Source of the DNA: a virus
Taxonomy: Duplodnaviria; Caudoviricetes
IMG/VR virus record: IMGVR_UViG_3300008255_000012
Span: 1-59,629 of that record
DNA: 59,629 nt
Strand: one strand, 5' to 3'
Shown: one piece after another, positions 6,319-42,800 of the stretch
How the letters are laid out: each line of letters starts with the position of its first letter
Position numbering within the stretch: position 1 is the stretch's first letter
The notes under the pieces: generated by a model
What the model was told of the DNA's origin: nothing
Database searches by the model: none
Seen by the model: only the letters and a program-made list of their open reading frames with translations
Program-made: the position numbers and the translations under genes

Positions 6319-6361
6319 TTAAAATCTCTCTGTTGTTAAATGTTGGTTGTTCTGTTCTACA

Positions 6362-12551: not shown

Positions 12552-12580
12552 TTTGGCTTTCTCTCTGTTGTCAGATTTAT

Positions 12581-13081: not shown

Positions 13082-13098
13082 TTTAAATCTCTCTGTTG

Positions 13099-13473
13099 TT
13101 AAATTGATGATGCCACTATCTGTGAATGGCCTTCTAGGTTTGCACACTCAGCACACGCATTGCAGTTCTCACAATCAACACAGCTATTGCACTGTATGCA
13201 CCCGCTACAATCCCTGCAGTTCTCACATGAATTGCAGTTAGAGCAGTCGCTACAATCAACACTGTCTTTGCAGTAAGAGCAGCCGCGGCAGTTGCAGCAG
13301 TTATAACAGTTATCGCAGCCGCGGCATTCTACGCAATTCCAGCACCCGGTATTGGAGTCGTTCATGCTGGCATATTCAGGGAACCGAGAAGCAAAGGCCG
13401 CATCCACGCCGTTAACGCTTTTATCCTGGCGCCGCTTAAACTCTTTCAGGCTCTTAAATACTTGTGTTGACAT
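13099..13473 (-). CDS. Cys-rich CxxCxxC repeat protein (probable beta-helix)
   Basis: More than 20 Cys at 3-residue spacing. Confidence 0.7.
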   Translation of the reverse strand: MSTQVFKSLKEFKRRQDKSVNGVDAAFASRFPEYASMNDSNTGCWNCVECRGCDNCYNCCNCRGCSYCKDSVDCSDCSNCNSCENCRDCSGCIQCNSCVDCENCNACAECANLEGHSQIVASSI

Positions 13474-15306: not shown

Positions 15307-15880
15307 AAATAGCTTCTAGCGTCGGCTTGTCCACAAGAAACTCCTTGTTAGCAGCATCAACAGCCTTTTGCTTTTCGGTGCGAGTGTCGATCACTTTAAC
15401 CATTCCGCCCATGCATATTGATAATGGTATGTTCCCGTCAATAGGGACGTGTTCAACCATTTCGCCAACAACTGATTCTTTTTCAAACACATATCCAATA
15501 CATTTACATACCTGGCTACTATCGTCCAAATACAGGCTACCAACTGGCGGCAACTCGCTATTGTCGGCCATGGCCTGTGTGAACACTGGCTTTTCGTCAA
15601 TGGATATCGCTGGTTTATCTGCATTTGATAGTGGGCCAAAATAAGGGCGCCAGCCATCAAGACTATGGTAGATAACTCCTAAAAACCCGCATTCTTTATC
15701 GTTGTCATTGCGCCAAAGTAAATCTACGATTTCTAGCTCGTCGTGATGCCCTTCATTAACTGAAATGGCACCTCCAAACGACAGCACTATTCTGTCTGAA
15801 AGACCATTAGTTAAAACATCACCCTGTATTGCGGTCCAACCTTGTGACCTTAGTTCAGCTACTTTCATAATTTTACTCAC
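15275..15880 (-). CDS. Modular hypothetical protein, paralog of 31884..32585
   Basis: FTQAMADN.ELPPVGS and DTRT..KA.D boxes shared; start may be ATG 15868. Confidence 0.7.
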   Translation of the reverse strand: MSKIMKVAELRSQGWTAIQGDVLTNGLSDRIVLSFGGAISVNEGHHDELEIVDLLWRNDNDKECGFLGVIYHSLDGWRPYFGPLSNADKPAISIDEKPVFTQAMADNSELPPVGSLYLDDSSQVCKCIGYVFEKESVVGEMVEHVPIDGNIPLSICMGGMVKVIDTRTEKQKAVDAANKEFLVDKPTLEAIYDLWAQKIEQ

Positions 15881-15896
15881 TCTGTTGTTTTTTCTT

Positions 15897-19685: not shown

Positions 19686-20009
19686 TTAATTGATAAAGTT
19701 TTTCTTAACTGCATCGATCAAGCAGTTGGCAACTACAGGATCAAGTCCGCTATAGCTAAACTCGCCTGTTTTAGTGTTTACAGATAATCGCCCATAAGAC
19801 AGCTTTGCACGTAGTACAAGCGCTTTAGTTAGTGTTACGGGCTCATTATCAACTGTTGCGCCAGTTACCTTGCCTGTGCGTTCATCTGACTCAATACGCA
19901 GGCCATACACAGATTCTAGGTCTGCAATGTTAATTACAGGCGCTCCTGCATCGAACCAAGATTTACAAATCTGTTTAAATTTAATTTCACTGTTGTTTTT
20001 CATCGTCAT
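19686..20009 (-). CDS. Hypothetical protein
   Basis: GGAG SD; first gene after promoter at 20031-20059. Confidence 0.6.
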   Translation of the reverse strand: MTMKNNSEIKFKQICKSWFDAGAPVINIADLESVYGLRIESDERTGKVTGATVDNEPVTLTKALVLRAKLSYGRLSVNTKTGEFSYSGLDPVVANCLIDAVKKNFIN

Positions 20010-25189: not shown

Positions 25190-25191
25190 CA

Positions 25192-27271: not shown

Positions 27272-27275
27272 AAGC

Positions 27276-27839: not shown

Positions 27840-28084
27840 ACACCAAAGAGAAGATATTCAACATACTGGTGGGCGCGGCCGACAAATGGGTTAACGTCGA
27901 TGAGATATCAATGGCGATAAAGCTGAACAGAACCGATGTAACCACCACTGTAAATTCAATGATGAAAAGTAAAACCTATCCAAGCGTTGAGCGAAACATC
28001 AAAGATAAAACCGTTGGCACCGGCGGCAGGCAGCGCAGGCAGTACACAATCAAATACAGGTTGAGGATTGACCATGAAAATTAA
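27836..28084 (+). CDS. Winged-helix-like DNA-binding protein
   Basis: VDEISMAIKLNRTDV helix-turn-helix pattern. Confidence 0.45.
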   Translation: MNTKEKIFNILVGAADKWVNVDEISMAIKLNRTDVTTTVNSMMKSKTYPSVERNIKDKTVGTGGRQRRQYTIKYRLRIDHEN

Positions 28085-28364
28085 AGACCAGGCAGCAGAA
28101 GCGCTAAGGATTGATCCATTTGCCAAAACATTCATTTGCGATAAACCATGCAAAGGTGGCCGTGGAGGATTTGAGCGATACGTTATCAACGGGTTTAAAT
28201 GCGTTACATGCCAGCGAAAAAAGAACCTAGATCGTATAGCTGCAGATCCAGAAAAGCACAAAGAACGCCAACGTGAATACCTAAACAAAAATAGGGATTA
28301 TGTTTTAATGAAAGCCAGAGCTGATTGGCATAGAAGAAAGGAGGCTCAACTTGCAGCAGTTTGA
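28068..28364 (+). CDS. Zn-finger-like hypothetical protein
   Basis: CDKPCKGG..RY....CVTC. Confidence 0.55.
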   Translation: MTMKIKDQAAEALRIDPFAKTFICDKPCKGGRGGFERYVINGFKCVTCQRKKNLDRIAADPEKHKERQREYLNKNRDYVLMKARADWHRRKEAQLAAV

Positions 28365-28782
28365 AATAAGCATAGCAAATATCCGCGAAGTGTTCGGTGC
28401 GATAAAGCAGTTTATTCGGCCGAACAAGCGGTATTTAATCACTGTGAAAGAATGGCAAGCCAGAAGCTTACCCGCTAACGCTGTTTATTGGGTATGGGTT
28501 AAGCAGATAAGCGAATACACGGGCGAGAACATCAAGACGGTTGAGGCTAGATGTAAGCGTGACCATGGCTTACCAATTGCGCTCAGCGGTGAAAACGGGC
28601 AAGTGCTGGCATGAATGCTAGAGCGCTGCCACTTCACTCGACTTGATGATTCTCAGCAGTTAAAGATAGTTTCAGCAATGGAGATATCAAGAAACTTCAC
28701 GACTAAGGAACATAACGATTACCGTGACAGCATTCAGCAGTTTTGGAATGACCATGGGCTTAATCTTTCCTATAAAAATTAG
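28351..28782 (+). pseudogene. NinB/YbcN-like protein interrupted by in-frame TGA at 28612-28614
   Basis: RSLPANAVYWVW..CKRDHG then *MLE...SRNFTTKEHNDYRDSIQQFW..HGLNL in the same frame. Confidence 0.7.
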
Positions 28783-28808
28783 AAATGAAGTTAAGCATTG
28801 ATATTGCA

Positions 28809-28975
28809 TTGATGCGGCTGTTGAATTAAGCTTATTTTGTCTTTTAAGAGTGATGCCGAAAAAGACTATATGCCAAAAGCACGAAAACATGACACGCGAT
28901 TTTAAACCCCTTTCTAGGTGCCTAAGTGTCAGGCCGCATCAACTAGAAGGGGGTTTTCTCATTTAAGGGGTTTGT
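28809..28975 (+). promoter_or_regulatory. Structured leader/attenuator upstream of MTase-antirepressor genes
   Basis: 14-bp stem 28904-28917/28943-28956 with loop complementary to 28809-28818 and 28890-28895. Confidence 0.6.
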
Positions 28976-29806
28976 ATGGATTTTAAGACTGATAATTTGT
29001 GGTTAATGCAAGGCGATTGCCTTGATCGCATGAAAGAAATTCCTAGCGGTTCGGTGGATATGGTTTTAACTGATCCACCGTATGGTACAACAGCCTGTAA
29101 ATGGGATTCGATTATTCCCTTGACTTGGCATTTGGCTGAAAGCGGCAAAGTTATCTATCTAGAGGAGGCTTTGTTAAATGGGTATTCGTTTGCCTATTTT
29201 GAAAAAAATAAAAATGCTGGAATGTGGGAGCAGTTGAATCGAATTATTAAGCATAATGGTGCAATAGTTTTAATGGGACAAACTCCGTTCGATAAATTGC
29301 TTGGAGCCTCAAACCTTGAAATGCTCAGATATGAATGGATTTGGGAAAAGACTGCTGCTACTGGGCACTTGAATGCAAAGAAAATGCCCATGAAGGCGCA
29401 TGAAAATATTATGGTTTTCTATAAAAATAAACCAACATATAACCCTCAAATAACGGAAGGCCATAAACCAACAAATAGCTACACAAAAAGACACAATTCC
29501 GATGGTGAATGTTACGGCAAAACTAGATCAGTAAGTGGTGGAGGTAAAACAACAAGATACCCGCGAAGCATTCAAGTATTTGTCAGTGACAAGCAAAAAA
29601 TTAAACTACACCCAACACAGAAGCCTGTTGCACTGATGGAATATTTAATCAAGACGTACACTAATGCTGGTGAAAAGGTTCTAGACTTCACCATGGGTAG
29701 CGGCACTACTGGCGTGGCGTGTGTTAATACAGGGCGCAATTTCATTGGTATTGAAAAGGATGGCCAGTACTTCGAGATAGCAAAGAAAAGGATATTGTCA
29801 TTATGA
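28976..29806 (+). CDS. Site-specific DNA methyltransferase (N4/N6, beta class)
   Basis: TDPPYG, HPTQKPVAL, VLDFTMGSGTTG. Confidence 0.95.
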   Translation: MDFKTDNLWLMQGDCLDRMKEIPSGSVDMVLTDPPYGTTACKWDSIIPLTWHLAESGKVIYLEEALLNGYSFAYFEKNKNAGMWEQLNRIIKHNGAIVLMGQTPFDKLLGASNLEMLRYEWIWEKTAATGHLNAKKMPMKAHENIMVFYKNKPTYNPQITEGHKPTNSYTKRHNSDGECYGKTRSVSGGGKTTRYPRSIQVFVSDKQKIKLHPTQKPVALMEYLIKTYTNAGEKVLDFTMGSGTTGVACVNTGRNFIGIEKDGQYFEIAKKRILSL

Positions 29807-30483
29807 ACCAACTTATCACAGCAACACAGCTAACAATGAGCAGTCGTGAGATTGCAGACTTAACAAAAAAAGAACATAAAAACGTTACCAGAACTATTGA
29901 GTCGCTAATTTCTGATTCAATTTTAACCGCTCAAATTGAGCCGTTAAGCTACGAGCATCGCGGTAACTGGTATCGATTCTACGAATTAAATAAACGAGAC
30001 AGTTTGGTCGTGGTCGCCAGACTATCTCCTGAGTTCACCGCGGAGATAGTTGATCGCTGGCAAGAGCTAGAATCACAGCAAGCGCCAAAGCTTCCTCAGT
30101 CATTCGCCCAAGCGCTTCAACTCGCAGCAGACCAAGCTAAAGTAATAGAAGATCAACAAGCGGCTATTGCACTGGCCGCGCCAAAGGTTGAGTTTGTCGA
30201 TCGCTACGTGGAGTCAAAAGGGAATAAAGGTTTTCGACAGGTAGCAAAATTACTCAAGGCCAAAGAAAACGAGTTTCGAGCCTACCTATCAGTAAATAAA
30301 ATCCTGTATCGACTTGGAGGTGAATGGGCTCCATATCAATATCACATCGATGCAGGCCGTTTTGAAGTATCGACAGGAACAGCAAACGATCATGCTTACA
30401 ACGCGGCAAGATTCACGCCGAAAGGCATAGAGTGGATTGCAGGGTTATGGGCAGTACATCAATTAAAAAAGGAAGCAAAATAA
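29803..30483 (+). CDS. Antirepressor, Rha-like N-terminus + KilAC/ANT C-terminus
   Basis: MSSREIA..HKNV, IVDRWQELE, PQSFAQALQLAAD, APKVEF.D, FTPKGIEWI. Confidence 0.9.
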   Translation: MNQLITATQLTMSSREIADLTKKEHKNVTRTIESLISDSILTAQIEPLSYEHRGNWYRFYELNKRDSLVVVARLSPEFTAEIVDRWQELESQQAPKLPQSFAQALQLAADQAKVIEDQQAAIALAAPKVEFVDRYVESKGNKGFRQVAKLLKAKENEFRAYLSVNKILYRLGGEWAPYQYHIDAGRFEVSTGTANDHAYNAARFTPKGIEWIAGLWAVHQLKKEAK

Positions 30484-31193
30484 TGACTACACACAACAGT
30501 TACGCAGAAGTAAAGATAGCCAATCCATATAGTGAGATTTTTTGTTCAATAGGTGGGGACTTTGCAGGAATTGAACGTGTATCACTCGTAGCGTTGTCTG
30601 GGGTAAAGGAAGGTTGGAATAAATGCAATCCTTCCGATCATTGCTCAGCGCTGAAGGAGTTTTTAGATGCTGGCTTTAAACTGGTTGAAGGTGATAAATA
30701 TCTCGAGGTAGTTGGTTACGTTTACACAGTTGAGGCTGAAGATTTTGATCTGGTGAATAAAAAATCTTCTGAAGATTGCGATCGCTACATCCTATCAGCA
30801 GCAGCGCTAAATGGTGGCTGCAACATTCCAGCCAAGGTAGAGCAGTGGACGATTTATAACAATACATTTTCACTTTCCGAATTAAATGATGAACGTCGTG
30901 GAATGCTGTTTAATCACCATTGCAATGGCGGAGTAATGCAGAATAGCCAGCGAGGTGTTGAAGAAGATGTTTTTTATGATACTGATTCTTGGTCAGTTTG
31001 GAGTCTGAACACGATATACAGAGCCAAGCCAAAATCTGAGCGCGAGTTGTTTATTGATGCTGCAGTAGCCACTTTTGATGGTCGAACAGGGCTTTCTGAA
31101 TCCGCTATATCTTTGGCAGCACAGCTTATGTTCGACTCAAAAAAGTTCAAGTATGTTGACCTTACCAATGGCTTTGGCGAGAGCGTGCGATGA
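30483..31193 (+). CDS. Modular hypothetical protein
   Basis: KEFLDAGFKLVEGD, IYRAKPKSERELFIDAA. Confidence 0.65.
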   Translation: MTTHNSYAEVKIANPYSEIFCSIGGDFAGIERVSLVALSGVKEGWNKCNPSDHCSALKEFLDAGFKLVEGDKYLEVVGYVYTVEAEDFDLVNKKSSEDCDRYILSAAALNGGCNIPAKVEQWTIYNNTFSLSELNDERRGMLFNHHCNGGVMQNSQRGVEEDVFYDTDSWSVWSLNTIYRAKPKSERELFIDAAVATFDGRTGLSESAISLAAQLMFDSKKFKYVDLTNGFGESVR

Positions 31194-31867
31194 TATCCAA
31201 GCCAAAGCTACCACGCCCAAAGAAATGTAAGGCCCCTAGTTGCGGACTTAAGTTTCCGCCTGAGCGACAGATGCAAGAGACTTGCAGTATTAAGTGCGCC
31301 ATTGAGCTTACAAATTTAAAGCGTGCTAAGAAAGTCGCCAAGGATGCGGCTGAAACATTTGCATTAACTTCACAGCATTTATTGGATAAGAAGATCGTTG
31401 AGATTGGAAAACAAGAGCTGGCAAAAAAACGTGAGGCATCAAAGAAAAAAAAAGAGTTTTACGCTAATGACCGTAGACACCAGCTTAAACTAACCCAATC
31501 AGCTTTTAACGCTTGGATTAGATTTCGAGATAGCGGCAAACCTTGTATTAGTTGCGACAAGCCTGATAGCGGAACGCACCAGCGGCACGCATCACACTTT
31601 AGGTCGGTTGGTGCCTGTGCTGAATTAAGGTTTAACTCGCTTAACGTCCATACTAGCTGTTCAGTTTGCAATAACCACTTGTCAGGTAATATCGCAGGCT
31701 ACCGCCCTAGGCTAATAGATAAAATTGGTATTGAGCTGGTGGAGTGGCTAGAAGGCCCGCACGAACCAAAGAAGTACACCTGTGAACAGCTTCGAGAGAT
31801 ACGAGCTTACTATGCTCGATTAACTCGAGAAGGAATAAAAACAGATGAAGATAGACCGAATAAATAA
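31190..31867 (+). CDS. ninG: NinG/Rap-family endonuclease
   Basis: AFNAWIRFRD, PCISC, HASHFRSVG, LRF...NVH..C..CNNHLSGN..YR..LI.KIG. Confidence 0.9.
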   Translation: MISKPKLPRPKKCKAPSCGLKFPPERQMQETCSIKCAIELTNLKRAKKVAKDAAETFALTSQHLLDKKIVEIGKQELAKKREASKKKKEFYANDRRHQLKLTQSAFNAWIRFRDSGKPCISCDKPDSGTHQRHASHFRSVGACAELRFNSLNVHTSCSVCNNHLSGNIAGYRPRLIDKIGIELVEWLEGPHEPKKYTCEQLREIRAYYARLTREGIKTDEDRPNK

Positions 31868-31883
31868 ATAAGAGGTTAACCTT

Positions 31884-32585
31884 ATGTACACAGTAAAACA
31901 ATGGCGCGAACTAGGTGTAGACTTGATTATTGGCGACAAGCTTGATTGCAATACATGCCAAATTCAAGAAAATTGGTACATTGAAAAATATTTGAATGAT
32001 GGCTTAGCCGATACTTCTTGCGTGGAATTTTTTTCTCCAAGAAAAAATAAAGGCGTTCAACCTGTTCCAAATGGAATTATGGTTGAGATTGAATACAATA
32101 AGCATTGGAATAAAGGCGCTAACGCTTACGAGGCAGGCTCACTTAATTGGGCTGATCCGCTGCTAACAAAATGGTCACCATCCCAATATCAACCACTAAT
32201 AGATGGCATAGTTAAAGAGCATAAAGACCAATTAGCAATCCATAAGGCGCTAGCTGTTAATGTTCAGCGTCAAATCTTCACACAAGCCATGGCCGACAAT
32301 GGCGAGTTGCCGCCTGTTGGTAGCGAATGCCTTGCTATGGTAGATAGCTCGAAAAAGTTTAAGAAATATGTAGTTATGTATATTACAAACTGCGGCTCAA
32401 TGGTGTTGCGAAGAATTGAGAGCAAAATAGACTTGATTGTAGATATCGACTCTTGCGAATTCAAGCCAGCCGACACTCGCACCGACAGAGAAAAGGCTAT
32501 TGATGAAATGTTTGAGGATGCAAAAGTACAAGGTTCTAAAGGTGCATTCGAAAGACTTTACGATGCAGGTTATCGCAAGTGCTAG
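31884..32585 (+). CDS. Modular hypothetical protein, paralog of 15275..15880
   Basis: GVQPVP, FTQAMADNGELPPVGS, DTRTDREKAID, LYDAGYRK. Confidence 0.7.
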   Translation: MYTVKQWRELGVDLIIGDKLDCNTCQIQENWYIEKYLNDGLADTSCVEFFSPRKNKGVQPVPNGIMVEIEYNKHWNKGANAYEAGSLNWADPLLTKWSPSQYQPLIDGIVKEHKDQLAIHKALAVNVQRQIFTQAMADNGELPPVGSECLAMVDSSKKFKKYVVMYITNCGSMVLRRIESKIDLIVDIDSCEFKPADTRTDREKAIDEMFEDAKVQGSKGAFERLYDAGYRKC

Positions 32586-32824
32586 CAGTTCTAAAAGAAA
32601 CAGCCTTAGGCATAGTAACAGCGCTATGTCTATACGCAATATTCGGCGGATACATTGCCGCCATGTTCAACGGTAAACTGCCAATACAACAGTCAGAAAA
32701 GCAAGTTAGCATGTGCGCAGTGTTTCAAGATGGAACGACTTACGGCCGTGATAGCACTATTTCGATAGATGCTTATCATGAAAGGACCAAACAAAGTTTT
32801 GATTATCAGGAGTGCAATCAATGA
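32579..32824 (+). CDS. Small membrane protein
   Basis: N-terminal hydrophobic helix. Confidence 0.5.
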   Translation: MLAVLKETALGIVTALCLYAIFGGYIAAMFNGKLPIQQSEKQVSMCAVFQDGTTYGRDSTISIDAYHERTKQSFDYQECNQ

Positions 32825-33237
32825 TTAAAAATATATACGCTGATGCTGCAAGATGGCTTTTAAATGGTGAGACAGGATCTAGTAGTAAAGCAATTTGCAA
32901 CCATATGCTTTTTGGGAAACAACCAAGAGCTGACTATCCTTCAGATCCATCTGACATTGGAAGATGTTTTTTGCTTCTGCGAGAAATTCCTGATTGGAAT
33001 GGAAGAATATTGGAAATGGCAGAATATGGTGGTCCATGGAAGTCTATCTCTGAAAGGTGGGATGAAATAAAAGAATGCATGGATGATGAGGTTGGAATAG
33101 ATTGGTCAAAAGGACATAAAGCATTAGAAACATATAAATTAATGAAGTTGGTAATTGCAGAAGGTTACAGAAACGATGAAAGGTATGACTGCAAGTTCTA
33201 TGATGATGGAGCATTAATGTCAGCTTTTTTAAAATAA
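32812..33237 (+). CDS. Conserved phage hypothetical protein (AT-rich)
   Basis: WLLNGETGSSSKAI..P.DPSD.GRC..LL..IP.W. Confidence 0.65.
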   Translation: MQSMIKNIYADAARWLLNGETGSSSKAICNHMLFGKQPRADYPSDPSDIGRCFLLLREIPDWNGRILEMAEYGGPWKSISERWDEIKECMDDEVGIDWSKGHKALETYKLMKLVIAEGYRNDERYDCKFYDDGALMSAFLK

Positions 33238-33240
33238 AAG

Positions 33241-33265
33241 AAAGCCCTCAATCGAGGGCTTTTTT
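33241..33265. terminator. Bidirectional terminator between convergent arms
   Basis: AAAGCCCTC-AATC-GAGGGCTTTTTT. Confidence 0.8.
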
Positions 33266-33451
33266 ATTACACAGTTTTTTGTAAGTTTCATCGTGCTCGA
33301 GTATCTGTATCACCAACTCATCGCTAATCACTTCAACATCGGCTTTAGTTGGTGTGATCTGCTTTGCTATCAGGCAATAATCACTTACTGAGCCTGCGCA
33401 GCCGGTCCCGACGATCATTAGCATCAAGATTGGTGACAACCTCGCTAACAT
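33248..33451 (-). CDS. o-spanin (Rz1-like lipoprotein)
   Basis: MLARLSPILMLMIVGTG|C lipobox; overlaps 3' end of i-spanin in another frame. Confidence 0.7.
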   Translation of the reverse strand: MLARLSPILMLMIVGTGCAGSVSDYCLIAKQITPTKADVEVISDELVIQILEHDETYKKLCNKKALD

Positions 33452-33587
33452 CCTTTGCTTGCTTAACTGCATCGATCACCTCTGCTTGTTTTTTTCGCCC
33501 AACTGAATCGGCGCCAGACTTACGACCAAAAATGACGGCAGCAATTAATGCTGCGATCACCAAGGTAATGCCTATTAACGTTCCCAT
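33381..33587 (-). CDS. i-spanin (Rz-like)
   Basis: N-terminal TM, short helical domain ending RDRLRRL. Confidence 0.65.
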   Translation of the reverse strand: MGTLIGITLVIAALIAAVIFGRKSGADSVGRKKQAEVIDAVKQAKDVSEVVTNLDANDRRDRLRRLSK

Positions 33588-33796
33588 TATTTCTTAGTCG
33601 TCCAGACTGAAACTTTATCAAGGAATGAAGAAACGTAGCCCAAGAATACTTTTGCCTTGCTTACGTACTCATCATCCTTAGTTGTAGGAGTTACTTGTGC
33701 AACCTTTTCAAGCGCGGCCACGATAGAGGTAGCAGCAACTACAATGACGCCAAGCCACATAAAGCCATCTTGAAAATAAATTAAAACCTGTTCCAT
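33587..33796 (-). CDS. Small membrane protein in lysis cassette (holin-like)
   Basis: TM followed by TPTTKDDE motif. Confidence 0.55.
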   Translation of the reverse strand: MEQVLIYFQDGFMWLGVIVVAATSIVAALEKVAQVTPTTKDDEYVSKAKVFLGYVSSFLDKVSVWTTKK

Positions 33797-33805
33797 AAAT
33801 CCACC

Positions 33806-34318
33806 CTAATTATCTTGACTAGCTATTTTAAGGTTTGCCGCCATGCGATTCATCCAGCCTTTGCCGTCTTTGTCGAACGTGGCACACTTCACAAAAAACG
33901 AAATGCGCTCAGCGATGAACAGCATTAGCATGTCGTTAATGTCCTTTGCATCCTTCGCCGCAATAGTTTTGTCGCCAATAACCCCGTCGTCTTTTGTGCC
34001 GACCGCTCGCTGCAGCATTTTGGTTGCATTGCGAGCCCCATGGTTAATTGATGCGTCAAAAAACTGATATTGCATTGCAGGTCGGAATCGTTCCATTTTC
34101 AGAGGGATCCACCAATCTTTAAAGTAGATTTCCTTGGCTTGTTCCACTGTTAGGTTTTCAATATCTAGGTTTGGATATGTCATAGCAGCTAGGCCAAACT
34201 TAGTACCCTTAAGCTCGCCTTCCCCAACCTTTCCGCTAGTCCAGTTACCGCGATCATGATGCATTTTCTGGAAACCGCCTTCATGGCCGATAACCCGATT
34301 GAATGCTGTATCAAACAT
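33806..34318 (-). CDS. Endolysin, GH108 lysozyme with PG-binding domain
   Basis: HEGG....DRG, TKFG, IYFKDWW, FDASINHG, LQRAVG..DGVIG..T, GWMNR. Confidence 0.9.
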   Translation of the reverse strand: MFDTAFNRVIGHEGGFQKMHHDRGNWTSGKVGEGELKGTKFGLAAMTYPNLDIENLTVEQAKEIYFKDWWIPLKMERFRPAMQYQFFDASINHGARNATKMLQRAVGTKDDGVIGDKTIAAKDAKDINDMLMLFIAERISFFVKCATFDKDGKGWMNRMAANLKIASQDN

Positions 34319-34342
34319 ATGCTACCGCCTTATTTATTGCTT

Positions 34343-34639
34343 TCACTTCGGCCCCCTTGGAATAAATCTCTGAATGATTGGCATAACCACCCACTGTACT
34401 GATCTGTTAATTCCTAGGCCACATGCGCAAGACAGGATCATGGTTTCAGGGAACGAGGCGGCGCGTATAACACCAAGGAAAACAAGCATAAGGCCAAAAA
34501 TTACAGCTAGTATCATTTCGCCTACAAACGCCCGCATCTTGATCTTTTCTTGGTTTAGTAGGTTTCTTGCGACGACAGCAAGCGAGAAGGTAAAAACAAC
34601 CGCCAGGGTTTTGAGTAAATCATCATGCTTTAAGTCCAT
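34343..34639 (-). CDS. Holin
   Basis: Two to three TM helices, directly upstream of endolysin. Confidence 0.7.
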   Translation of the reverse strand: MDLKHDDLLKTLAVVFTFSLAVVARNLLNQEKIKMRAFVGEMILAVIFGLMLVFLGVIRAASFPETMILSCACGLGINRSVQWVVMPIIQRFIPRGPK

Positions 34640-34718
34640 GTTAGCGCCTAGTGGTTAACCTTCTGAATTGAGGTTGTCAACATTTACATGCGCTTAATAA
34701 TACCCTTAAAAATGGCAT

Positions 34719-34786
34719 AAAAAAAGCCACCAATTGGAGGAGGTGGCTAAGAAGCAAAAACAACAGAGAAGTGAACAACAAAAGAC
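34719..34786 (-). ncRNA. Candidate trans-acting sRNA (~68 nt)
   Basis: Promoter TTTACA-N17-TATTAT; GU-rich body; AGCCACC-TCCTCCAATT-GGTGGCT-T6 terminator; no ORF. Confidence 0.7.
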
Positions 34787-34792
34787 AAGCTG

Positions 34793-34821
34793 ATAATAGG
34801 GGTTTATAAGGGCATTGTAAA
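34793..34821 (-). promoter_or_regulatory. Sigma70 promoter of the sRNA
   Basis: TTTACA-N17-TATTAT. Confidence 0.7.
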
Positions 34822-34925
34822 GATTAATAATTCATTACTAATCAATTTTGAGGCTATTTAATCGGCGTCTAGTTAGATCGATATTGTAGATCCAAATTGT
34901 TACTAACAAAGAAAGAGGATCTATC

Positions 34926-35657
34926 ATGGCAACATTTACTGAAGGCGATGTATTCCGTGGCATGGGCGGGGATGGCAGCAATGGACTTGGCGGAACTGGC
35001 ATGGGGTTAGTGCTTGGTTTGCTTCTTGGCCGAGGCGGTCTTTTTGGCAATCAAAATGGTGAAGGCGCAGGTTGCGTCACCAATGAAACTATCAACCAAC
35101 AAACGCTAGGCGATATTAAGGCAGCAATCCCATATAACGAGGCGCAAGTACAACTTGCCTTGGCTCAAGCTATGGCGAGCATTACTCAGCAGAATACAAA
35201 CAACACCCAATATTTGTCGCAAGGTCAAACTGCGCAAATACTGGCAACGACACAAGGAGTTGCGGCGTTAAGTCGCGACATTGGTGCTGTTGACACAAAC
35301 GTTGATCGACAAAGTACAGCAATTCAACAAGCAGTGTTTGCCGATGGTGAACGTACTCGACAACTAATTACCTCTAACCGGATTAACGATTTAGAGCAAC
35401 AATTAACTGTTGCTCAACTTCGCGAGTCAGAACAGCGCGGAATTAACCGTGAAATCGTAAACACCAATACGATCACTGTTGGCATGAACCAGCAGCAATC
35501 ACAGCAACAACAACAAATGCAGGCTCTACAATGGCAGTTAAACGCGCTATGTGGTGGAGTTAGCCAAATGGCTAGAGCAACGAACTCTAGTGTTGTTGTC
35601 GGCTCATCAGGTGTTAACGGCTCACAAGCGGCTAACCCCACTAACGTGAGTGCATGA
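34926..35657 (+). CDS. Gly-rich hydrophobic N-terminus + long Gln/Asn-rich coiled-coil protein
   Basis: GAGGA SD; GMGLVLGLLLGRGGLFG, LGDIKAAIP..EAQVQLALA, DGERTRQLI, ANPTNV. Confidence 0.8.
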   Translation: MATFTEGDVFRGMGGDGSNGLGGTGMGLVLGLLLGRGGLFGNQNGEGAGCVTNETINQQTLGDIKAAIPYNEAQVQLALAQAMASITQQNTNNTQYLSQGQTAQILATTQGVAALSRDIGAVDTNVDRQSTAIQQAVFADGERTRQLITSNRINDLEQQLTVAQLRESEQRGINREIVNTNTITVGMNQQQSQQQQQMQALQWQLNALCGGVSQMARATNSSVVVGSSGVNGSQAANPTNVSA

Positions 35658-35812
35658 TCATGGAGCTTCGGTTTAAGAAAGATGGCACGATTGTTATCAG
35701 TCCTGAAAATGACACTGAAGCTATGGCCCTTCGTTATTGGGTTAGTGAGTTTCAAACTCATGGGATGAAGATGATCGAGATCGAGACAGATCACAAGGAC
35801 ATGGACGACTAG
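35654..35812 (+). CDS. Hypothetical 52-aa protein (MIMELRFKKDG...)
   Basis: ATGA-coupled to the Gly-rich gene; not in track. Confidence 0.6.
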   Translation: MIMELRFKKDGTIVISPENDTEAMALRYWVSEFQTHGMKMIEIETDHKDMDD

Positions 35813-35837
35813 CCATATCCTTGCTTCAAACAAGGCG

Positions 35838-36029
35838 CTACATAGGCGCCTTGTTTTTTTCTTTGCTGTAGGCTATTTGGCATCTATCACAGGAAACCAT
35901 TCTACAGCCTTTGCATAGCTGATACCTATCATCAAGATCGCCGCTAGCGGCCATTGATTTAACCTGTTCCGCATTGAGCCCGACTTGCTGGCCAATTGTA
36001 GAAAGTATGATAACCATTTGCTTATTCAT
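35838..36029 (-). CDS. Small Cys-cluster protein
   Basis: GAGGT SD; CKGC....CDRC. Confidence 0.55.
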   Translation of the reverse strand: MNKQMVIILSTIGQQVGLNAEQVKSMAASGDLDDRYQLCKGCRMVSCDRCQIAYSKEKNKAPM

Positions 36030-36037
36030 AACGACCT

Positions 36038-36286
36038 CTATTTCAGATAAGAAGGAAGCTTGTACCCGCTATCATTAAGTCTTTCTTCGATTAGTGGTAT
36101 TAGCTCAGGGTTTTCTTTTAAGAAAATCCTCAACTTATCAATGAAGCCATCACGGATAAAATCACTCGCACTCTTGCCTGTTACCTCAGGAACTATTTTT
36201 GTTATCGCCTTTTCTGCCTCGGTTATGAAAACCTTGTGGTCGGCGGATCTTGCTATTGATGCTTTTAATGGTGGACGCCCTGACAT
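36038..36286 (-). CDS. Ribbon-helix-helix-like regulator
   Basis: GRPP AT-hook-like start, VFITEAEK...GKSASDFIRD. Confidence 0.6.
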   Translation of the reverse strand: MSGRPPLKASIARSADHKVFITEAEKAITKIVPEVTGKSASDFIRDGFIDKLRIFLKENPELIPLIEERLNDSGYKLPSYLK

Positions 36287-36520
36287 GATCTTTCCTTGGT
36301 TTGTTTTTGACAATAATACAATACCCCCAACTCAATACCTTATTAATGCCCTATAATTAAAAAATAGGTGATTAAATCAGCATATTTAAAAAATAATTAA
36401 ATTGGTGGTATTATGCAGTATAACTTATGAATGATTTTAATTTTTAGGCCATAGTAAACCAATGCTCTTGGTGCAACAGTGAAGGTACGGACATTTGGAA
36501 AACTATGAGAAAACAGGCAA

Positions 36521-36742
36521 ATGGATATGAACAGTGCTAAATTTATAGCGTTATGCTTTGGGATGATGACACTGATTACAATGATAATCTCGCCGTTGCT
36601 GGCCGTGGCTTCTGCCATAATGTGTGCAGGTGTTGGTTCAAGGTGTGCATGCAAAGGGATTAATAATGTTCAGTATGCTGTTAGCGCATTGGCCCTTATT
36701 GGAATGTCTGTTTACACACTATTCATAATGCAACAAGCCTAA
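36521..36742 (+). CDS. Small multi-TM membrane protein
   Basis: Hydrophobic segments; stand-alone gene on opposite strand. Confidence 0.5.
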   Translation: MDMNSAKFIALCFGMMTLITMIISPLLAVASAIMCAGVGSRCACKGINNVQYAVSALALIGMSVYTLFIMQQA

Positions 36743-36846
36743 AAAGACACCGCGATTGCGGTGCCATCATTTATTAATACCCTAGGTACACAAACTTATT
36801 TACAGCTAAATAAGGAACCATATGGTCTTGCTGTGTTACCCCTCCG

Positions 36847-38223
36847 CTAAGGTTGTGGTCCCATATAGCTGCCTGCCATAAATAAAGTGCCAGACCCCGT
36901 AGCAAATACTTTAATATTCCAATGTGCTGTCTTATTGGCGGGCGCGCTTCTTGTAAATAGGTCATACTCTATTGTTTGATAACTAGAAGATGTCATTGAT
37001 ACAGAAGGCGCTATGCTTAACGTCCCAGTAGACTGCCACATATTTTCGTTAACTGAGTTCATTCCTGTTAAAGTGCTCCCTGTAAACTTACTCACAGTTT
37101 GCCCGCCACTAGTTTGCGATAAATTTGTGGCAGGAGATTTAGTCATCGTTAGGTTCCCACCCCCAGAAGCAGGTTGACTCCATGTAAATAACATCCCTCC
37201 TAACGTAATGCTTTTATTATTCCAATAACCATTCCCTCCAGTTTCAACGCTTGCATATTCCATGACAGCGGTCGTACTAGTCGTGCTTCCTCCAACCTTA
37301 CGCTTAATATATGCAAGTATGCTTGATAAGGTCACCTGCATTAAAGTGCCGCTGTTATTTACTAAAACACCATCATCGTCTTCAACAGAGGTTGTTTCTG
37401 GAGTGGTTGCCCCCGACAATGTTGATAGCTCTGTATTAGTTACATTACTGGCGGTGGTCAGTCCTTGAGAATTTGACAGTAAAACCTTATTAGGGGATAC
37501 CACTGCCTCAATGGGTGCATCCTCAAAAACTCGTAACCTTACAGCAGAATAATGAGTAGCTGCATTAGCTGCGCTAGGGCGCACTTGTAAGTAATTGGCT
37601 ACCCCGTCTTCATTACCTTTACGTAACTTAATACAAGTAACAATCGGGGTTCCTGCTAACCCCTCTATAGGGTGAGTGAACCACCAGTCAACCGTATCAC
37701 CAGATTCGTAAGCTTGCCCTGTAAACTTTTGCTCATAAGCTTGAATACCTGTTTCATCTGTGCCGTACCACGCTTGGTATTCAAGCCAATCATTGGCAGC
37801 TACCGCCTCCATTACTATAAAGGTTTGCCCTAATACGGAATGATTACCTAGTAGCGCGGCAGCCTTATTGTATGCAACCGAGCCAGAAGCAGCCGCAGCC
37901 CCATACGGCTCCAATGTTTGCATATCAGCGTACTTTCTAATGCTAGGAGTAATAACTCCACCAGCTCCACGGTTAGATGGAATGCGATGGTCTTTAAGCC
38001 CTGACCAAGCAGGGAAAAAGTTAATATTACTGTTAAGGTTAGTAAAGAAGATGTTCTCAGCACCAGAACTCATCTTGTGTTGATCGCCTAGGAAGAAGCT
38101 ATTAAGCGTGGTCTGTATTTCCCTGTCAGATTCAATTTGATTAGTTTCAGAGTTGTACTTTAAATGCTTTAAAGTATCTTGGTCTTTTTTAGAAATATTA
38201 CCTTTACCAAATTTCGCACCCAT
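36847..38223 (-). CDS. Putative fibre/virion appendage protein
   Basis: Start MGAKF after GAGG; TELSTLSG..DDDGVLVNNSGTLMQV fibre-like segment, Ser/Thr/Gly-rich C-terminus. Confidence 0.5.
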   Translation of the reverse strand: MGAKFGKGNISKKDQDTLKHLKYNSETNQIESDREIQTTLNSFFLGDQHKMSSGAENIFFTNLNSNINFFPAWSGLKDHRIPSNRGAGGVITPSIRKYADMQTLEPYGAAAASGSVAYNKAAALLGNHSVLGQTFIVMEAVAANDWLEYQAWYGTDETGIQAYEQKFTGQAYESGDTVDWWFTHPIEGLAGTPIVTCIKLRKGNEDGVANYLQVRPSAANAATHYSAVRLRVFEDAPIEAVVSPNKVLLSNSQGLTTASNVTNTELSTLSGATTPETTSVEDDDGVLVNNSGTLMQVTLSSILAYIKRKVGGSTTSTTAVMEYASVETGGNGYWNNKSITLGGMLFTWSQPASGGGNLTMTKSPATNLSQTSGGQTVSKFTGSTLTGMNSVNENMWQSTGTLSIAPSVSMTSSSYQTIEYDLFTRSAPANKTAHWNIKVFATGSGTLFMAGSYMGPQP

Positions 38224-38224
38224 A

Positions 38225-38488
38225 TTAGTCAACCTCAGCATTTATTTGGCTGTTTCCAAGCAAGAAAACCTCTTTCTCGCCAGATGGAACTTGGAGCAAA
38301 ACCTCAGGCAATGCAGGGAGTACCCTAAAGTTAAGCGTTGACACTTCAGGCTTTGCATCACCGATATGAAACTTTACCTTTGACGGGCCAATGTTCTGCA
38401 CATTAAACGCTTGACCTATTGGTATTGCGAATAACGCATTAACAGACTGATACTCTTTGCCGTTAAGCTGCTCGGTTTTATTTGTCAC
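38225..38488 (-). CDS. Small beta-rich virion-type protein
   Basis: FNVQNIGPSKV motif; coupled to fibre-like gene. Confidence 0.5.
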   Translation of the reverse strand: MTNKTEQLNGKEYQSVNALFAIPIGQAFNVQNIGPSKVKFHIGDAKPEVSTLNFRVLPALPEVLLQVPSGEKEVFLLGNSQINAEVD

Positions 38489-38711
38489 GATAGGACACCT
38501 GTATTAGTTACTGAAGTCATTACTATATGTTAGATATTAGTGCATTTTATATACCCTAATAATTGCAATTTTATAGTTTTTTAAGTGCGCCGATATCACG
38601 CTGCTGTTATTTGTGTTTGGCTTAAAGGTAGGAAAGCCTTCTTTTAAAAATGTAGCACGCATTTAAATTTTTATGCACCTAGCTCAACTTAAAACAACTA
38701 AAATATAAACG

Positions 38712-38739
38712 TTTACATTTTGACTATTTAATGTATTGT
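38712..38739 (+). promoter_or_regulatory. Promoter for KilA-N operon
   Basis: TTTACA-N16-TATTGT. Confidence 0.5.
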
Positions 38740-38773
38740 TAGCTAAATAATACAGGTAAATTAAAGGGAATCC

Positions 38774-39292
38774 ATGAAGCCATTGGTGATAAATTCAACA
38801 GAAATAACCACCGACTCACAAGGAAGGTTTAGCCTCAATGACTTGCACAAGGCTGCTGGCGGTATGACTAAGGATTTGCCTAACAAGTTTATGAGGTCAG
38901 AGTCTTTTAAAAATGTGTGCGACGTTTTAATTGCCCAGAATAGGGCATTTGAACCAGTTGTAAAAAAACAAGGTCGCTATAACGGAGGCACTTGGGTTTG
39001 CAAAGAGTTGGTTTATAAGTACGCGATGTGGGTTAACGCAGATTTTGAAGTAAAGGTTATTCAAACTTTTGATTCTTTGTTCAACGCATTAGCCGCCCCA
39101 TCATCAATGGCCGCACTTAATGAGCTAACCGCTAAGATAGAGTCTGACAAAGACGTAGCTAGTTTTTGCGGTAAGGAGCTCAACAAGTACAAGCTGGTCA
39201 AGAAGCAAAACGAAGATGCCTTTTTGGCCGAGGTAAAAAAAGCCCAGCTAACTCTTGGATTTGTAAACAGTGATAATTTACCGAGGGGGTGA
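38774..39292 (+). CDS. KilA-N domain protein
   Basis: GRFSLNDLHKAAG, GTWVCKELVYKYAMWV..FEVKVI.TFD. Confidence 0.9.
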   Translation: MKPLVINSTEITTDSQGRFSLNDLHKAAGGMTKDLPNKFMRSESFKNVCDVLIAQNRAFEPVVKKQGRYNGGTWVCKELVYKYAMWVNADFEVKVIQTFDSLFNALAAPSSMAALNELTAKIESDKDVASFCGKELNKYKLVKKQNEDAFLAEVKKAQLTLGFVNSDNLPRG

Positions 39293-39295
39293 TTA

Positions 39296-39640
39296 ATGTT
39301 TGACGCAAATGCTGCACACATAAAAGAAGGTGAACTATTTTTTGCTGAGGTTCATGGTACTGACTCACAGCTTTTAGCTGCTGGAATAAATAATGGCGAC
39401 ATAATTATGGTTAGCCATGTGAAGAAATCTAGTGGAAGGCCAAGAGAAAATCTTTTGAGTAAGGTGTGGAAAGCTAAAGGGTTAGATCCTATTGAGTGGA
39501 GCTCGACTGGTTCTAGCGAATGGTCTTGGATGGTTTACTCTGGAAGACCTGACGGGCATGGATTTATTAGTCATCACTGGAAAGATAAGGCTTTGGCATT
39601 CCTTGGTGGTGAATGGAATAAAGAAAAAGGCAATGAATGA
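39296..39640 (+). CDS. Hypothetical protein
   Basis: GAGGGGG SD. Confidence 0.6.
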   Translation: MFDANAAHIKEGELFFAEVHGTDSQLLAAGINNGDIIMVSHVKKSSGRPRENLLSKVWKAKGLDPIEWSSTGSSEWSWMVYSGRPDGHGFISHHWKDKALAFLGGEWNKEKGNE

Positions 39641-39804
39641 TGAGATTATTTTCAGCTATATCAGTAATTTTTGGACTTGCAGTTTGGTATCTATCAGGTA
39701 ACGAACTAGGCTTTGCTGTCGGGGTTGGTTGCTTTTGGTGCGGTGCCGTGGCTTCATCGGCACTAGGGATGTGCAAGAAAATCAGCAAAGACAGCATTCT
39801 ATAA
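39637..39804 (+). CDS. Small two-TM protein (MMRLFSAISV...)
   Basis: ATGA-coupled; ends at terminator; not in track. Confidence 0.55.
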   Translation: MMRLFSAISVIFGLAVWYLSGNELGFAVGVGCFWCGAVASSALGMCKKISKDSIL

Positions 39805-39828
39805 ATAAAGGGGCTTTCGCCCCTTTAT
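39805..39828. terminator. Bidirectional terminator
   Basis: ATAAAGGGGC-TTTC-GCCCCTTTAT. Confidence 0.75.
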
Positions 39829-39834
39829 CATTTC

Positions 39835-42800
39835 TTACTTCACGCTTACCGCTTCGTTGTATGCCTTATTGAATCTAGCAGCCATTAAACGCTTTCTTTC
39901 CTCAATTGCATCTATGCGGGTTTGCTTTTGCTCATCACTGAGCTTGCTCGCATCAATCGCCGCCTTTTGCTTATTCAGCCTAGTAAGCTCTTTCTGAATA
40001 CCCTTTGTCATGGATATCAGCTTAACCTTTGGCCTGTTCTCGGTTATAAACTTTATCCGCTCTTCACCGGGCAACATGGTAGCTTGCTTCTCTACTGTCT
40101 TTATTTCATCGAAGCGTTTATACATTTCTGATATATCGACAGACTCAGAGATTGAGCCCATGTACTTGCGCCAGAATGGGATCTCGCCAGACTCAACGCT
40201 TTCACCTTTAACTGTTTTGACAGCCAAATCTTGCGACCTTCCAAACAAAGAGCCCAGCCCGCCGCCGGCAAACTTAATTAGGTGTTGCCATGACTCAGGC
40301 GCAATATCGACAACGCCTGATTTAAATTGGTTTCCGCCGGTTAAGTCGTTTAGGTACTCGCTTAATCCTTTAGCCCACTCCCATGTTTTACGCTGTGAGT
40401 TGTAAGCATCAGGCGTTTTAAGACCGAAAGGATTTTGCTCTTTGTAGATAGGCGAGCCAGTAAAGTTTTCATTAAGTGCCATTTCTACAAACGGCTTTAA
40501 CACTGCTGGCGCTGCCGTCTTTACAACTTGCGAGGTCATCTGTTCAGAACTAACCGCGCCCAATGGCGAAAACGCACCAGCAAATGCGGCAACAGTATCG
40601 AATGCTGATTCGATGGCGGTTGATTCGGTGTTCATGCTTCTGTCGATGGCATTGCCTATCGATGCAAAGAAGTTGTACCCATAAGGCATTGGTATTTTTA
40701 TGAAGTCGCCTTCACTGCCTGGGATCATTAATACAAAGTTTGTCTCCTTCACATAATCAGGGACCTTATCGTAAAATGGTTTTCCATCGTCATCATCGCC
40801 GCCCCACTCCCTGTTTGCCTGCGCCATTAATATTGTGGCTATTGGCAGGGCCATAGCAATTTTCTGGGTTAGGTTATAGAACTCAGGATCCCAAATCTTT
40901 TTAGTCTTGTCGGCCGGAGTCATTACCGCACGTAACATGTTGGCCGTACCCTGCACGCTGGCATTGAAGAACATGTAAAGCGCGTTAATGCTATTGGTCA
41001 TTTCTCCGCGACGGTTAAAGTTTACTGTCAGGTTTTTAGCGAGTGATGCAGCGGCCTTTTCAGTAAGTCCCAGACGACGGGCATTTGTGTAAACAGATAG
41101 CCTAGAAGAATTTTCGATAACGTCGTTATAGTCGTCGATGAACTTAAGCATCTTGTCTTTGCTGCGGATCAGCTTGTTCTTAGCGCCTTCGCCAGTAGTG
41201 CTTATTGAGCGAGTAATATCATCCTTAATTTCGTCAATATCCTTTTGCACGAACCAGCCTGTTTTGGCTCCTGCGTCCAAATATTCTTTTAGGTATGCTC
41301 CCCACTCTCCAGTGAAATCGTTATCCCTAAACCCGCGCTTTAGCGCTTTCATTGAGCTAGGGATATCCTTAACCATTTCTTTGGCAAGATCCTTAGTTCC
41401 TAACGCCTTACCCCCTTCTATCTTTGACTCTGCCAGCACGTTATAAACTGCGGTTTGCACATCTCGGGCAAAGTTAGATAAAGCAAACTGAGGGTCATAG
41501 CTGGTGATTAGCGCCGATAGTACGCGGGTAACTCGGCCAATAGTCTTAGTTAGAATGTTAGCCTGTTCAACGCCAAGGTTTGCCATAGCCTCCATCAATC
41601 GAGGATCGTGCAACTTAATGTAATACTGCTCTCCGCCCATTTTTGCGCCAAGGTACTTATCCTTCATCGCGTGCATTGGCATTACAGTTTCGATCACTGT
41701 TTCAACTGTCTTGCCAGTAGCGGGATCTTTGCGCTTTGTTATCTTGCGGGTTGTATCAGGATTTTCACTGCTGAACACCTGCCAAAGCTCCGGGTCTGGG
41801 TTCGCATCAACAAGCCTAAGCATTGTCTGAGCTACTTCGTTTTTTCTTGCGCGGATAGCCGACTGAGTAGCATCAGAAATGACATAAGCAAGCGGCGACT
41901 CTGACACTGTGCGTCTGCCCATTGCTCGCATTGTTTCCCTGCCATGTACGCTGAAGCCTTTCCCTGTGGCCTTAACTCTGTTTCCTTCCGTGTCAGACTC
42001 ATTGACAGCAAAACCTTTAAGCGGAACGTAATGCTTATATGCAGAGTCCCACGAATCAACAATATCTTGTGACTCTAAACCTGAGTCAATTAACCTTTGC
42101 TTTGTTGAGTTGATAATGCCATCAACAAACGCAGCCGCCGCCTTAACTTTTGTCATGGTGCCTTCTTTGGTGAAGTTATCCATGATCTTTGCAGCCTCGG
42201 CATCCGTCATGCCAGAACCACCATCCTGTATATCAGGGTTTATTTTGGCAATTTGAGCGTTACGCTCTGGCGCGTGGCGGGCAATCAAGTACAGATCAAG
42301 CTCTTCGCGTGAAACGTTTTCTTTGCCCATGTACTCGACAAGCGGCTTGATGTATTGATCTTCCATTACTCGTAAATCTTCTCCGACCTTGCCGTGGAAT
42401 AATTCCTCTGCAAGATAAACGTCTTTGCTTTCATCAATCATACCGCCCTGCTCTTTAACGGCCTTCTGCGTGACTTTAAGGCGACGGTATTTATCCTGTA
42501 TAGACCTGAGGAAAGCATCCTTCCTAGTTTCGTCTGGAATGCTAAAGCCATCTTTTGCGGTTAACTGATTACTGAACTTTATATCGTTCTTTATTTCAGA
42601 GCGGCCGGCGCTGACAGTTTTTATCCTTTCCCCGATGATGCGGATCATATCCTTAATCTCGGTTGCCGTTATTTTGTCGCCAACAAATCCAACTTTTCTT
42701 AGGGCCCGAGTAATTGCGGCAATAATTCTATTGCCCCACTCTCCAAGCTTGCTAGGTTCCAACTCTGCGATACTGGCGATCACTTCCTCGGCCTTTGCAT

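Follow-up and report, generated by a model that had tools for sequence, protein, structure and literature searches.

A conserved promoter-terminator leader ahead of the holin gene in marine Vibrio phages and its complementarity to a start-associated motif

Overview

The DNA discussed here, referred to below as the window, is the complete virus record IMGVR_UViG_3300008255_000012 (59,629 bases), and the element in question is a short minus-strand unit at 34719..34821, just upstream of the gene for a putative holin. The solid result, as predicted from sequence, is a conserved promoter-terminator gate before the holin in a group of marine Vibrio phages; the type of control is one that is already known. 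With a probability of about 0.6, we read the element as a terminated leader like lambda pR'-tR', which would gate the lysis cassette and by default release an RNA of ~68 nucleotides (nt). All nucleotide and protein relatives of the window in the phage collection are Vibrio phages, and the window itself is, to judge from its sequence, a ~60-kb podophage-like Vibrio phage. Proteins were annotated with PHROGs (67 predicted proteins) and Pfam (35 proteins, E up to 0.01). Features are on the minus strand unless noted otherwise.

The predicted lysis promoter and its terminated leader

The promoter (TTTACA-N17-TATTAT, 34793..34821) is of the sigma-70 type, matches 10 of 12 consensus positions with a 17-nt spacing, and is one of only three 10/12 sites within 20001-40000. 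The predicted transcript (34719..34786, ~68 nt), whose 5' end is placed from the spacing to the -10 hexamer, begins with an A-poor, U/G-rich part (34750..34786) that has no pairing in the predicted fold; the first 38 nt of the RNA are unpaired. Within this part lies a candidate seed (34756..34769), so called for its complementarity to a motif that precedes certain start codons. The remainder is an intrinsic terminator (34719..34748), which consists of a 7-bp GC-rich stem (AGCCACC/GGUGGCU, 34748-34725), a 10-nt loop, and a U-tract (34724 down to 34719). This hairpin is the sole structure predicted for the 68-nt RNA (free energy, dG, -12 kcal/mol; z -2.81; 2 of 200 shuffles equally stable). An earlier reading, made from the letters alone (the sequence-only reading), had proposed an RNA of this length upstream of the holin, and its sequence, promoter, and terminator are all present as proposed.

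Between the U-tract and the holin start lies a 79-nt spacer or 5' untranslated region (UTR) (34640..34718). The first lysis gene (34343..34639, ATG at 34639) encodes a 98-amino-acid membrane protein, which is putatively the holin because it lies upstream of the endolysin and because its relatives carry membrane-protein annotations. PHROGs annotation of the cassette (phrog_315, phrog_9685, phrog_1026, phrog_1275) gives, in addition, the endolysin (33806-34318), a 69-amino-acid protein (33587-33796), and an Rz-like spanin pair (33381-33587 and 33248-33472). The unit comprises this 1.4-kb cassette only; it is convergent with the replication operon, and the terminator at its end (33241..33262) faces the end of that rightward operon. 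The cassette is alone on its strand, with a plus-strand gene pair and a hairpin/terminator (35828-35856) upstream of it, and because of this isolation it needs the promoter at 34793-34821.

In the mechanism that we favor, the near-consensus, host-type promoter would fire, and most transcripts would end ~68 nt later at the strong intrinsic terminator. The default product would be a short U/G-rich RNA, and the holin-endolysin-spanin cassette would stay silent. Transcription of the lysis genes would then need read-through of the terminator, arising either from a phage-made antitermination function late in infection or from a fixed, low leak. Since a near-consensus promoter that feeds the holin would be harmful if ungated, the strong terminator 68 nt downstream would serve as the gate. 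Promoter activity, efficient termination, and regulated read-through are all three what we infer from these elements.

A leader peptide was considered and not adopted. The window has a frame of 13 codons and a close relative (G001, below) one of 12; the two differ by a 3-nt indel and stop at the same TAG, at the base of the hairpin. The frame in the window has no ATG or ribosome site, and it has no counterpart in two other lineages (G002 and the D79 group, below).

Layout in related phages

Four leader types were compared: that of the window; that of G001, a 57,043-bp genome also represented by a second contig (L002), whose holin is 94% identical and whose shared modules are ~80% identical to those of the window; that of G002/L025 (58,497 bp; holin 71% identical); and that of a group of Vibrio phages comprising D79, K249, 252E42.2, 1.205.O, and D184 (holin about 64% identical). 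These five, of 101 matching records, are the ones that were read for the D79 group, and they are nearly identical at this place. All four lineages have the same order, namely a promoter, a leader of 60-85 nt, a GC hairpin followed by 6-8 U, and the holin. The leaders themselves are barely alignable across the lineages, and their 5' part is U/G-rich in every one.

A sigma-70-type promoter stands at the matching relative place ahead of the lysis genes in each lineage. G001 has a -35 hexamer identical to that of the window and TACTAT as its -10, the D79 group has TTTACA-N17-TATAAC, and G002 has a TTGACA -35 followed, by eye, by an AT-rich -10-like stretch. (Inspection by eye of the initial transcribed regions of the four lineages revealed no -10-like element common to them.) The terminators differ in a similar way. 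G001 has the stem of the window with another loop, and its spacer to the holin is nearly identical; G002 has the same stem with a tetraloop; the D79 group has a different, analogous hairpin. The sequence-only reading had drawn attention to CCUCC in the terminator loop as an anti-Shine-Dalgarno sequence. The CCUCC is indeed present, but it is unique to the window, the loop being replaced in G001, G002, and the D79 group alike, and the idea was rejected.

In the D79 group the holin ATG directly follows the U-tract. This leaves no space for a downstream promoter, and therefore transcription of the holin there must pass through the terminator. The sequence elements, the conserved layout, and the lack of space for any other holin promoter in this one lineage are direct observations.

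Several further features of the leaders were seen. In the D79 group (L001 2440-2489, Vibrio phage D79), the holin ATG that follows the U-tract has no recognisable Shine-Dalgarno sequence. Also in the leader of this group (D79, K249, 252E42.2, 1.205.O, D184) is a small hairpin of the GNRA type, in which the 5' arm is a repeat of the terminator's 3' arm. By eye, an alternative, antiterminator-like pairing of this upstream segment with the 5' arm of the terminator therefore appeared possible there; the minimum-energy fold keeps the terminator, and the window contains nothing similar.

A more distant group (L008), with an endolysin 62% identical to that of the window and a putative holin unrelated in sequence, has by eye a promoter-like hexamer pair and two tandem hairpin/T-run terminators before that putative holin. 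Alignment of the holin gave no leader variants beyond these: viral_contigs held only G001/L002 and G002, metagenome_contigs only a second copy of G001, and genome_contigs none. Relatives of the endolysin have other holins in a different context and supplied no new leader variant. A terminator-pattern scan of viral_contigs returned generic terminators, with no holin relative (tblastn) in the 80 loci listed of at least 121 stretches.

How read-through might be controlled

Several observations weigh against a regulated gate. No antiterminator family, the Q family included, is recognised among the 67 proteins in PHROGs or the 35 in Pfam. The three genes that follow NinG and might have been Q-like (30432-31193, 31884-32585, and 32812-33237) have no sequence match in Pfam or the PDB. 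Promoter-like sites as a class are not enriched in this genome (3 found versus 4.5 expected in 33500-36000, for example). The 10-nt terminator loop is unusually large, and the terminator scan did not list this hairpin because the loop exceeds the limit of 8 set in the scan. Lastly, a second TATTAT with a poor -35 is visible by eye downstream of the terminator, in a block conserved in G001, and there may thus be a second, weak holin promoter in this phage.

The three genes after NinG are, moreover, not conserved in the other lineages. A non-homologous antitermination factor may be involved. The only non-structural, non-lysis proteins common to the four lineages are encoded by an adjacent minus-strand pair, 36038-36313 and 35838-36029, and in three of the lineages (the window, G001, and G002) its place is just ahead of the lysis region. 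The first protein resembles CopG/ribbon-helix-helix proteins (protein-atlas score 0.93-0.94, a lead only); the second, of 63 amino acids, has two CxxC pairs (CxxC-x5-CxxC), and its protein-atlas look-up gave nothing above 0.84. The pair are candidate late regulators. A conserved gate ahead of a holin with no recognisable Q protein would point to an antitermination or attenuation factor of some other family, and it bears on lysis timing in the abundant ~60-kb Vibrio podophages of oyster and coastal collections.

The hairpin could instead be a mere insulator or a leaky attenuator, with no dedicated antiterminator, an inert RNA, and a chance match between the seed and the start-associated motif; it would either stop minus-strand read-through from upstream or trim the dosage of holin. 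Such read-through toward the lysis cassette is plausible because the upstream hairpin (35828-35856) has no free T-run after its stem on the minus strand, and the failure to find an antiterminator family among the annotated proteins fits equally well. On the other hand, a near-consensus promoter occupies the same relative place in four lineages, and this argues that the terminator closes a transcription unit begun 60-85 nt before it. In addition, a constitutive promoter with a fixed leak into the holin would give no timing. We consider this explanation quite improbable.

Far less probable still is that the short RNA acts in cis, pairing as an antisense with the 5' UTR of a divergent gene on the plus strand (34926-35657). 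That gene would then have to be transcribed from a plus-strand promoter-like site at 34674-34701 (TTGTCA-16-AATAAT), which does match 10 of 12 positions and lies in a block nearly identical in G001; a transcript from this site would be fully complementary to the leader RNA. However, G002 and the D79 group keep the promoter-terminator-holin layout without a homologue of the divergent gene, and the RNA would have no overlap with a UTR made from an alternative plus-strand site (34803-34831, 9/12).

The protein encoded by the divergent gene has 243 amino acids, is glycine-rich and hydrophobic at its N-terminus, and is rich in glutamine over its C-terminal half; neither PHROGs nor Pfam gives a family match for it. 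This gene and a 52-amino-acid open reading frame (ORF) make up a plus-strand insert, flanked by the conserved regulator pair and the lysis promoter; among the relatives compared, only G001 has this insert.

A start-associated motif complementary to the leader

The seed of the leader is complementary to sequences at the starts of several genes, all of them on the minus strand. The motif AACAACAGAGA (11 nt, 6327..6337) lies 9 nt before the ATG at 6318 of a gene of the N4-gp49 family (5764-6318), a site that is kept in G001, and the same 11 nt recur at 13090..13100, 9 nt before the ATG at 13081 of the gene 12581-13081. A 10-nt variant (12562..12571) is upstream of the ATG at 12551 of a 49-amino-acid ORF (12402-12551), and 13 nt complementary to the leader (15880..15892) lie 11 nt before the ATG at 15868 of the gene 15275-15868; each of these four sites precedes its ATG by 9-11 nt. 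A further 11-nt complement (19990..20000) falls in the early codons of the gene 19686-20018. All five had been named in the sequence-only reading and were confirmed on the strand with the sense of the messenger RNA (mRNA); the sixth match that it gave, at 23846-23855 in the first rightward gene, needs a bulge and is a by-eye reading alone.

The motif is genuinely start-associated. Exact AACAACAGAG occurs in 4 copies in 119 kb of two-strand sequence, 3 of them at ribosome sites and 1 as the complement of the leader, and all 3 exact sense-strand copies are 9-11 nt before an ATG. When up to 1 mismatch is allowed there are 13 sites versus 4.67 expected, a number reached by 0 of 100 shuffles. Of the 12 that do not belong to the leader, 6 fall in a start region or among early codons. 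ACAGAG and ACAACA are enriched 7- to 9-fold in the 35 nt that precede starts. The pattern ACAACA[GA]NG[AT]G occurs before an ATG once in G001, at the same gp49-family gene; in 252E42.2, 3 of 4 matches are at start codons, including that of a non-homologous gene after the portal gene. The motif may be read as an ACA-rich enhancer joined to a GAG-type variant of the Shine-Dalgarno sequence. The start regions at 6318 and 13081 share ~30 nearly identical bases, spanning the ribosome site and the first codons (ATGACT), in two otherwise unrelated genes; this stretch (6290-6340, 13050-13105) could be a gene-boundary recombination linker as well as a translation signal.

Just upstream of the 15275-15868 start region, at 15897-15928, are two exact copies of a 12-bp palindrome, TAGCAATTGCTA, positioned 8 bp apart. 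The window has no further exact copies, and the arrangement resembles a tandem operator, to which a dimeric DNA-binding protein would bind.

The complementarity between seed and motif is unusual. When the 68-nt RNA was compared with 82 gene 5' zones (-35..+60) against 2000 dinucleotide shuffles, perfect complements of at least 10 nt were found in 6 zones (shuffle mean 1.39, P 0.0035) and of at least 11 nt in 4 (shuffle mean 0.42, P 0.0005). For the 37-nt single-stranded part and 87 start regions (-30..+12), the counts are 7 versus 1.61 for 9-mers (P 0.0155) and 4 versus 0.51 for 10-mers (P 0.016). An excess of seed matches at starts over a shuffled background, which the sequence-only reading had proposed as a check, is seen in the window genome (P 0.0005-0.016), although one repeated motif underlies it and duplex energies are unspecific. 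When 112,844 genomic 37-mers were ranked, those antisense to a start region being left out, the leader locus was the best for 9-mers, with matches in 6 start regions, and the joint best for 10-mers; 0.022% of 37-mer windows reach 6 start regions, the only region listed being 34731-34796. Its 9-mer count is reached by none of 115 other T-rich, A-poor windows.

These numbers bear directly on whether the match arose by chance between a pyrimidine-rich leader and purine/ACA-rich ribosome sites, as it would have if the hairpin were only an insulator or attenuator. Pyrimidine-rich sequence does pair promiscuously with start regions, and 10-mer complements to four or more gene 5' zones are found at 52 loci of the genome. 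Set against this is the top rank of the leader for start-region complementarity. All of the seed matches trace to one repeated motif, however, and effectively constitute one coincidence rather than four to six.

Pairing in related phages

If the pairing were used, seed and start regions might be expected to change together, and covariation in relatives had been put forward as a check. In G001 the seed has changed from UCUCUGUUGUU to UUACUGUUGUU with no compensation. It keeps 9 of 14 seed positions (34756-34769), in that the 9-nt CUGUUGUUU is retained and the flanking UCU altered. The gp49-like start region is unchanged, so the match there shrinks from 11 to 9 nt and leaves the GAG uncovered. 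Two further targets retained in G001, the homologues of the 49-amino-acid ORF and of the 19686 gene, have lost the match; they have ordinary start regions with 7-nt matches only. Neither the 12581 nor the 15275 gene is present in G001, G002, or 252E42.2, all of which lack the accessory region where these two genes lie. One gene specific to G001 has an 11-nt complement to the G001 version of the seed, which is not significant (P about 0.2). Overall, G001 has no excess of start-region matches (10-mers 1 versus 0.97, P 0.62; P about 0.2 in the tight-region test).

In G002 there is an excess at 9-mers only (5 versus 1.14, P 0.008), with none at 10 or 11. In 252E42.2, a GUU-repeat leader faces CAA-repeat start regions, and the counts are 3 versus 0.57 for 10-mers (P 0.02) and 4 versus 0.30 for 9-mers. 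This excess is nominal (P 0.0005-0.02): a reversed-leader control scores the same, and the signal therefore reflects the low-complexity GUU/CAA repeats.

Could the leader RNA act in trans?

Small RNAs (sRNAs) of the Hfq class have an unstructured seed, a GC hairpin, and a U-tail, and the leader, with its promoter, predicted single-stranded seed, hairpin, and U-tail, has this outward form. It could therefore be, in addition to its part in the gate, a trans-acting, GcvB-like sRNA whose U/G-rich seed blocks ribosome binding on several phage mRNAs, its targets being the ACA-rich, GAG-containing start regions of the gp49-family gene and of 12581, 12402, 15275, and 19686. The two roles would be compatible, as StxS is with pR'-tR'. 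In support of such a role are the perfect complements of 10-13 nt over the ribosome sites of four genes and in the early codons of a fifth, the shuffle tests (both for the whole RNA and for its 5' 37 nt), the genome-wide first place of the leader locus for 9-mers, the true association of the target motif with starts (6 of 12 non-leader sites), and the excess of matches that the 252E42.2 leader has of its own. Precedents are described for lambda 6S RNA (10.1101/2024.10.31.621285), StxS (PMC7547250), and GcvB (PMC3879156).

Other findings weigh against it. The matches are a single event, derived from a single repeated motif. In G001 the seed has changed and the gp49-like start region has not, two homologous targets are down to 7 nt, and two are absent; for matches of 10 nt and longer there is no excess in either G001 or G002, and in 252E42.2 the reversed leader scores as high as the true one. 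Duplex energies are unspecific as well. By RNAduplex, 44 of 87 start regions reach -14 kcal/mol; two of the four main targets, those of the gp49-like and 12581 genes, are outside the best 12 of 87; and the shuffle P is only 0.03-0.07. The CCUCC loop is not conserved.

Taken together, these findings make a role in trans unlikely. From the regulon that had been proposed, what stands is a genuine start motif and an unusual complementarity; what speaks against it is the single motif behind the matches, the unspecific energies, and the lack of compensation in G001. The associated claims, that the targets are lead genes of several units and include an anti-defence island, find no support here. Apart from the N4 gp49 family, the target proteins have no informative family in PHROGs or Pfam.

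The targets carry an A-R-N-like repeat, a type of sequence bound by the distal face of Hfq. A more specific version, to which we give distinctly little credence, is that the by-product of the gate is a GcvB-like and probably Hfq-assisted sRNA, which silences those phage mRNAs that share the ACA-rich, (ARN)-like motif, namely that of the N4-gp49-family gene after the portal gene and those of variable accessory genes. If true, one promoter-terminator unit would time lysis by read-through and the translation of other phage genes by the terminated RNA. A non-lambdoid and apparently virulent marine phage would then have an internal sRNA regulon, which might also reach host mRNAs that are CA-rich. 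Such use of a small RNA by a phage, to control several of its own genes in trans through the shared motif, would be rare.

Other features of the genome

PHROGs and Pfam identify structural genes in the window (head, portal, terminase, tail) together with genes for replication and regulation (an O-like initiator, a DnaB-like helicase, NinG, Ant/KilA-N-type regulators, and methyltransferases). The phage appears to be a non-lambdoid marine phage with an apparently virulent lifestyle; no integrase or repressor was noticed in the general annotation of 67 proteins with PHROGs and 35 with Pfam.

Between 12400 and 20500 is a block of small genes, mostly without family matches and largely replaced in G001, G002, and 252E42.2; three of those that bear the motif belong to it. 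Between this accessory block and the small terminase gene is a transfer RNA (tRNA) gene, tRNA-Met (anticodon CAT, 11958-12034), which is kept in G001. The gene at 39835-48507 encodes a protein of 2,890 amino acids with a DNA-methyltransferase-like centre and a conserved C-terminal 900 amino acids (phrog_616, phrog_15406). It is common to all three relatives compared and is probably a virion-borne or injected multidomain protein.

Comparison with known systems

Cluster K mycobacteriophages reportedly have start-associated sequences, a conserved and oriented short motif immediately upstream of some start codons, and to our knowledge no complementary RNA has been proposed for them. The motif described here is similar in kind, being oriented and placed before the start codons of a subset of genes. 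It differs in its sequence and in its host, and its copies are few: the window has 4, G001 has 1, and 252E42.2 has 3 related ones.

GcvB silences ACA enhancers, and the likeness to the leader lies in a U/G-rich, single-stranded region that is complementary to ACA-rich sequence just upstream of the Shine-Dalgarno of several mRNAs (PMC3879156). The leader, however, is no homologue of GcvB. Rfam detected only tRNA in the whole window at the gathering threshold, and for 34600-34950 at E up to 10 it gave only two chance-level matches to other families (E 6.5 and 6.7). The leader is also much shorter and phage-encoded, its candidate targets are phage genes, and its RNAduplex energies are unspecific.

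A further parallel is the late control region of lambdoid phages. Terminated RNAs from late promoters have been reported for lambda, 21, phi80, 82, P22, and Stx phages (PMC7547250). In lambda, pR' is constitutive, its terminated product is 6S RNA (StxS in Stx phages), and Q lets polymerase through (PMC7547250; 10.1101/2024.10.31.621285). The Vibrio phage unit is similar in its host-type promoter at the lysis genes, the terminator shortly downstream, and the short default RNA predicted from them, and in that polymerase would have to read through to reach the lysis genes. It differs from the lambda type in that no Q-family gene is recognised in the 67 proteins annotated with PHROGs or the 35 with Pfam, in that it feeds only a 1.4-kb lysis cassette rather than a whole late operon with the structural genes, and in that it resides in a ~60-kb podophage-like Vibrio phage.

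Both lambdoid RNAs are reported to act in trans. Lambda 6S RNA is described as Hfq-dependent, with one target in the lambda early operon (bioRxiv 10.1101/2024.10.31.621285), and StxS binds Hfq and represses a gene of its own phage by pairing at the ribosome-binding site (PMC7547250). The comparison with StxS made in the sequence-only reading is apt, inasmuch as StxS is a terminated late-promoter transcript (PMC7547250) and the RNA predicted here would likewise arise by early termination at a late promoter. StxS itself, 74 nt long, arises when RNase E processes a 258-nt transcript, of which it is the 3' fragment; it is made by a temperate phage in lysogeny (PMC7547250), whereas here the whole primary transcript would be ~68 nt. 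Set beside the 258 nt predicted for the Stx phage transcript, the predicted leader is far shorter. There is also no sequence similarity between the two and no Rfam match. The leader would nonetheless supply a non-lambdoid example for the idea, drawn from StxS and lambda 6S RNA, that terminated transcripts of late promoters are raw material for phage small RNAs.

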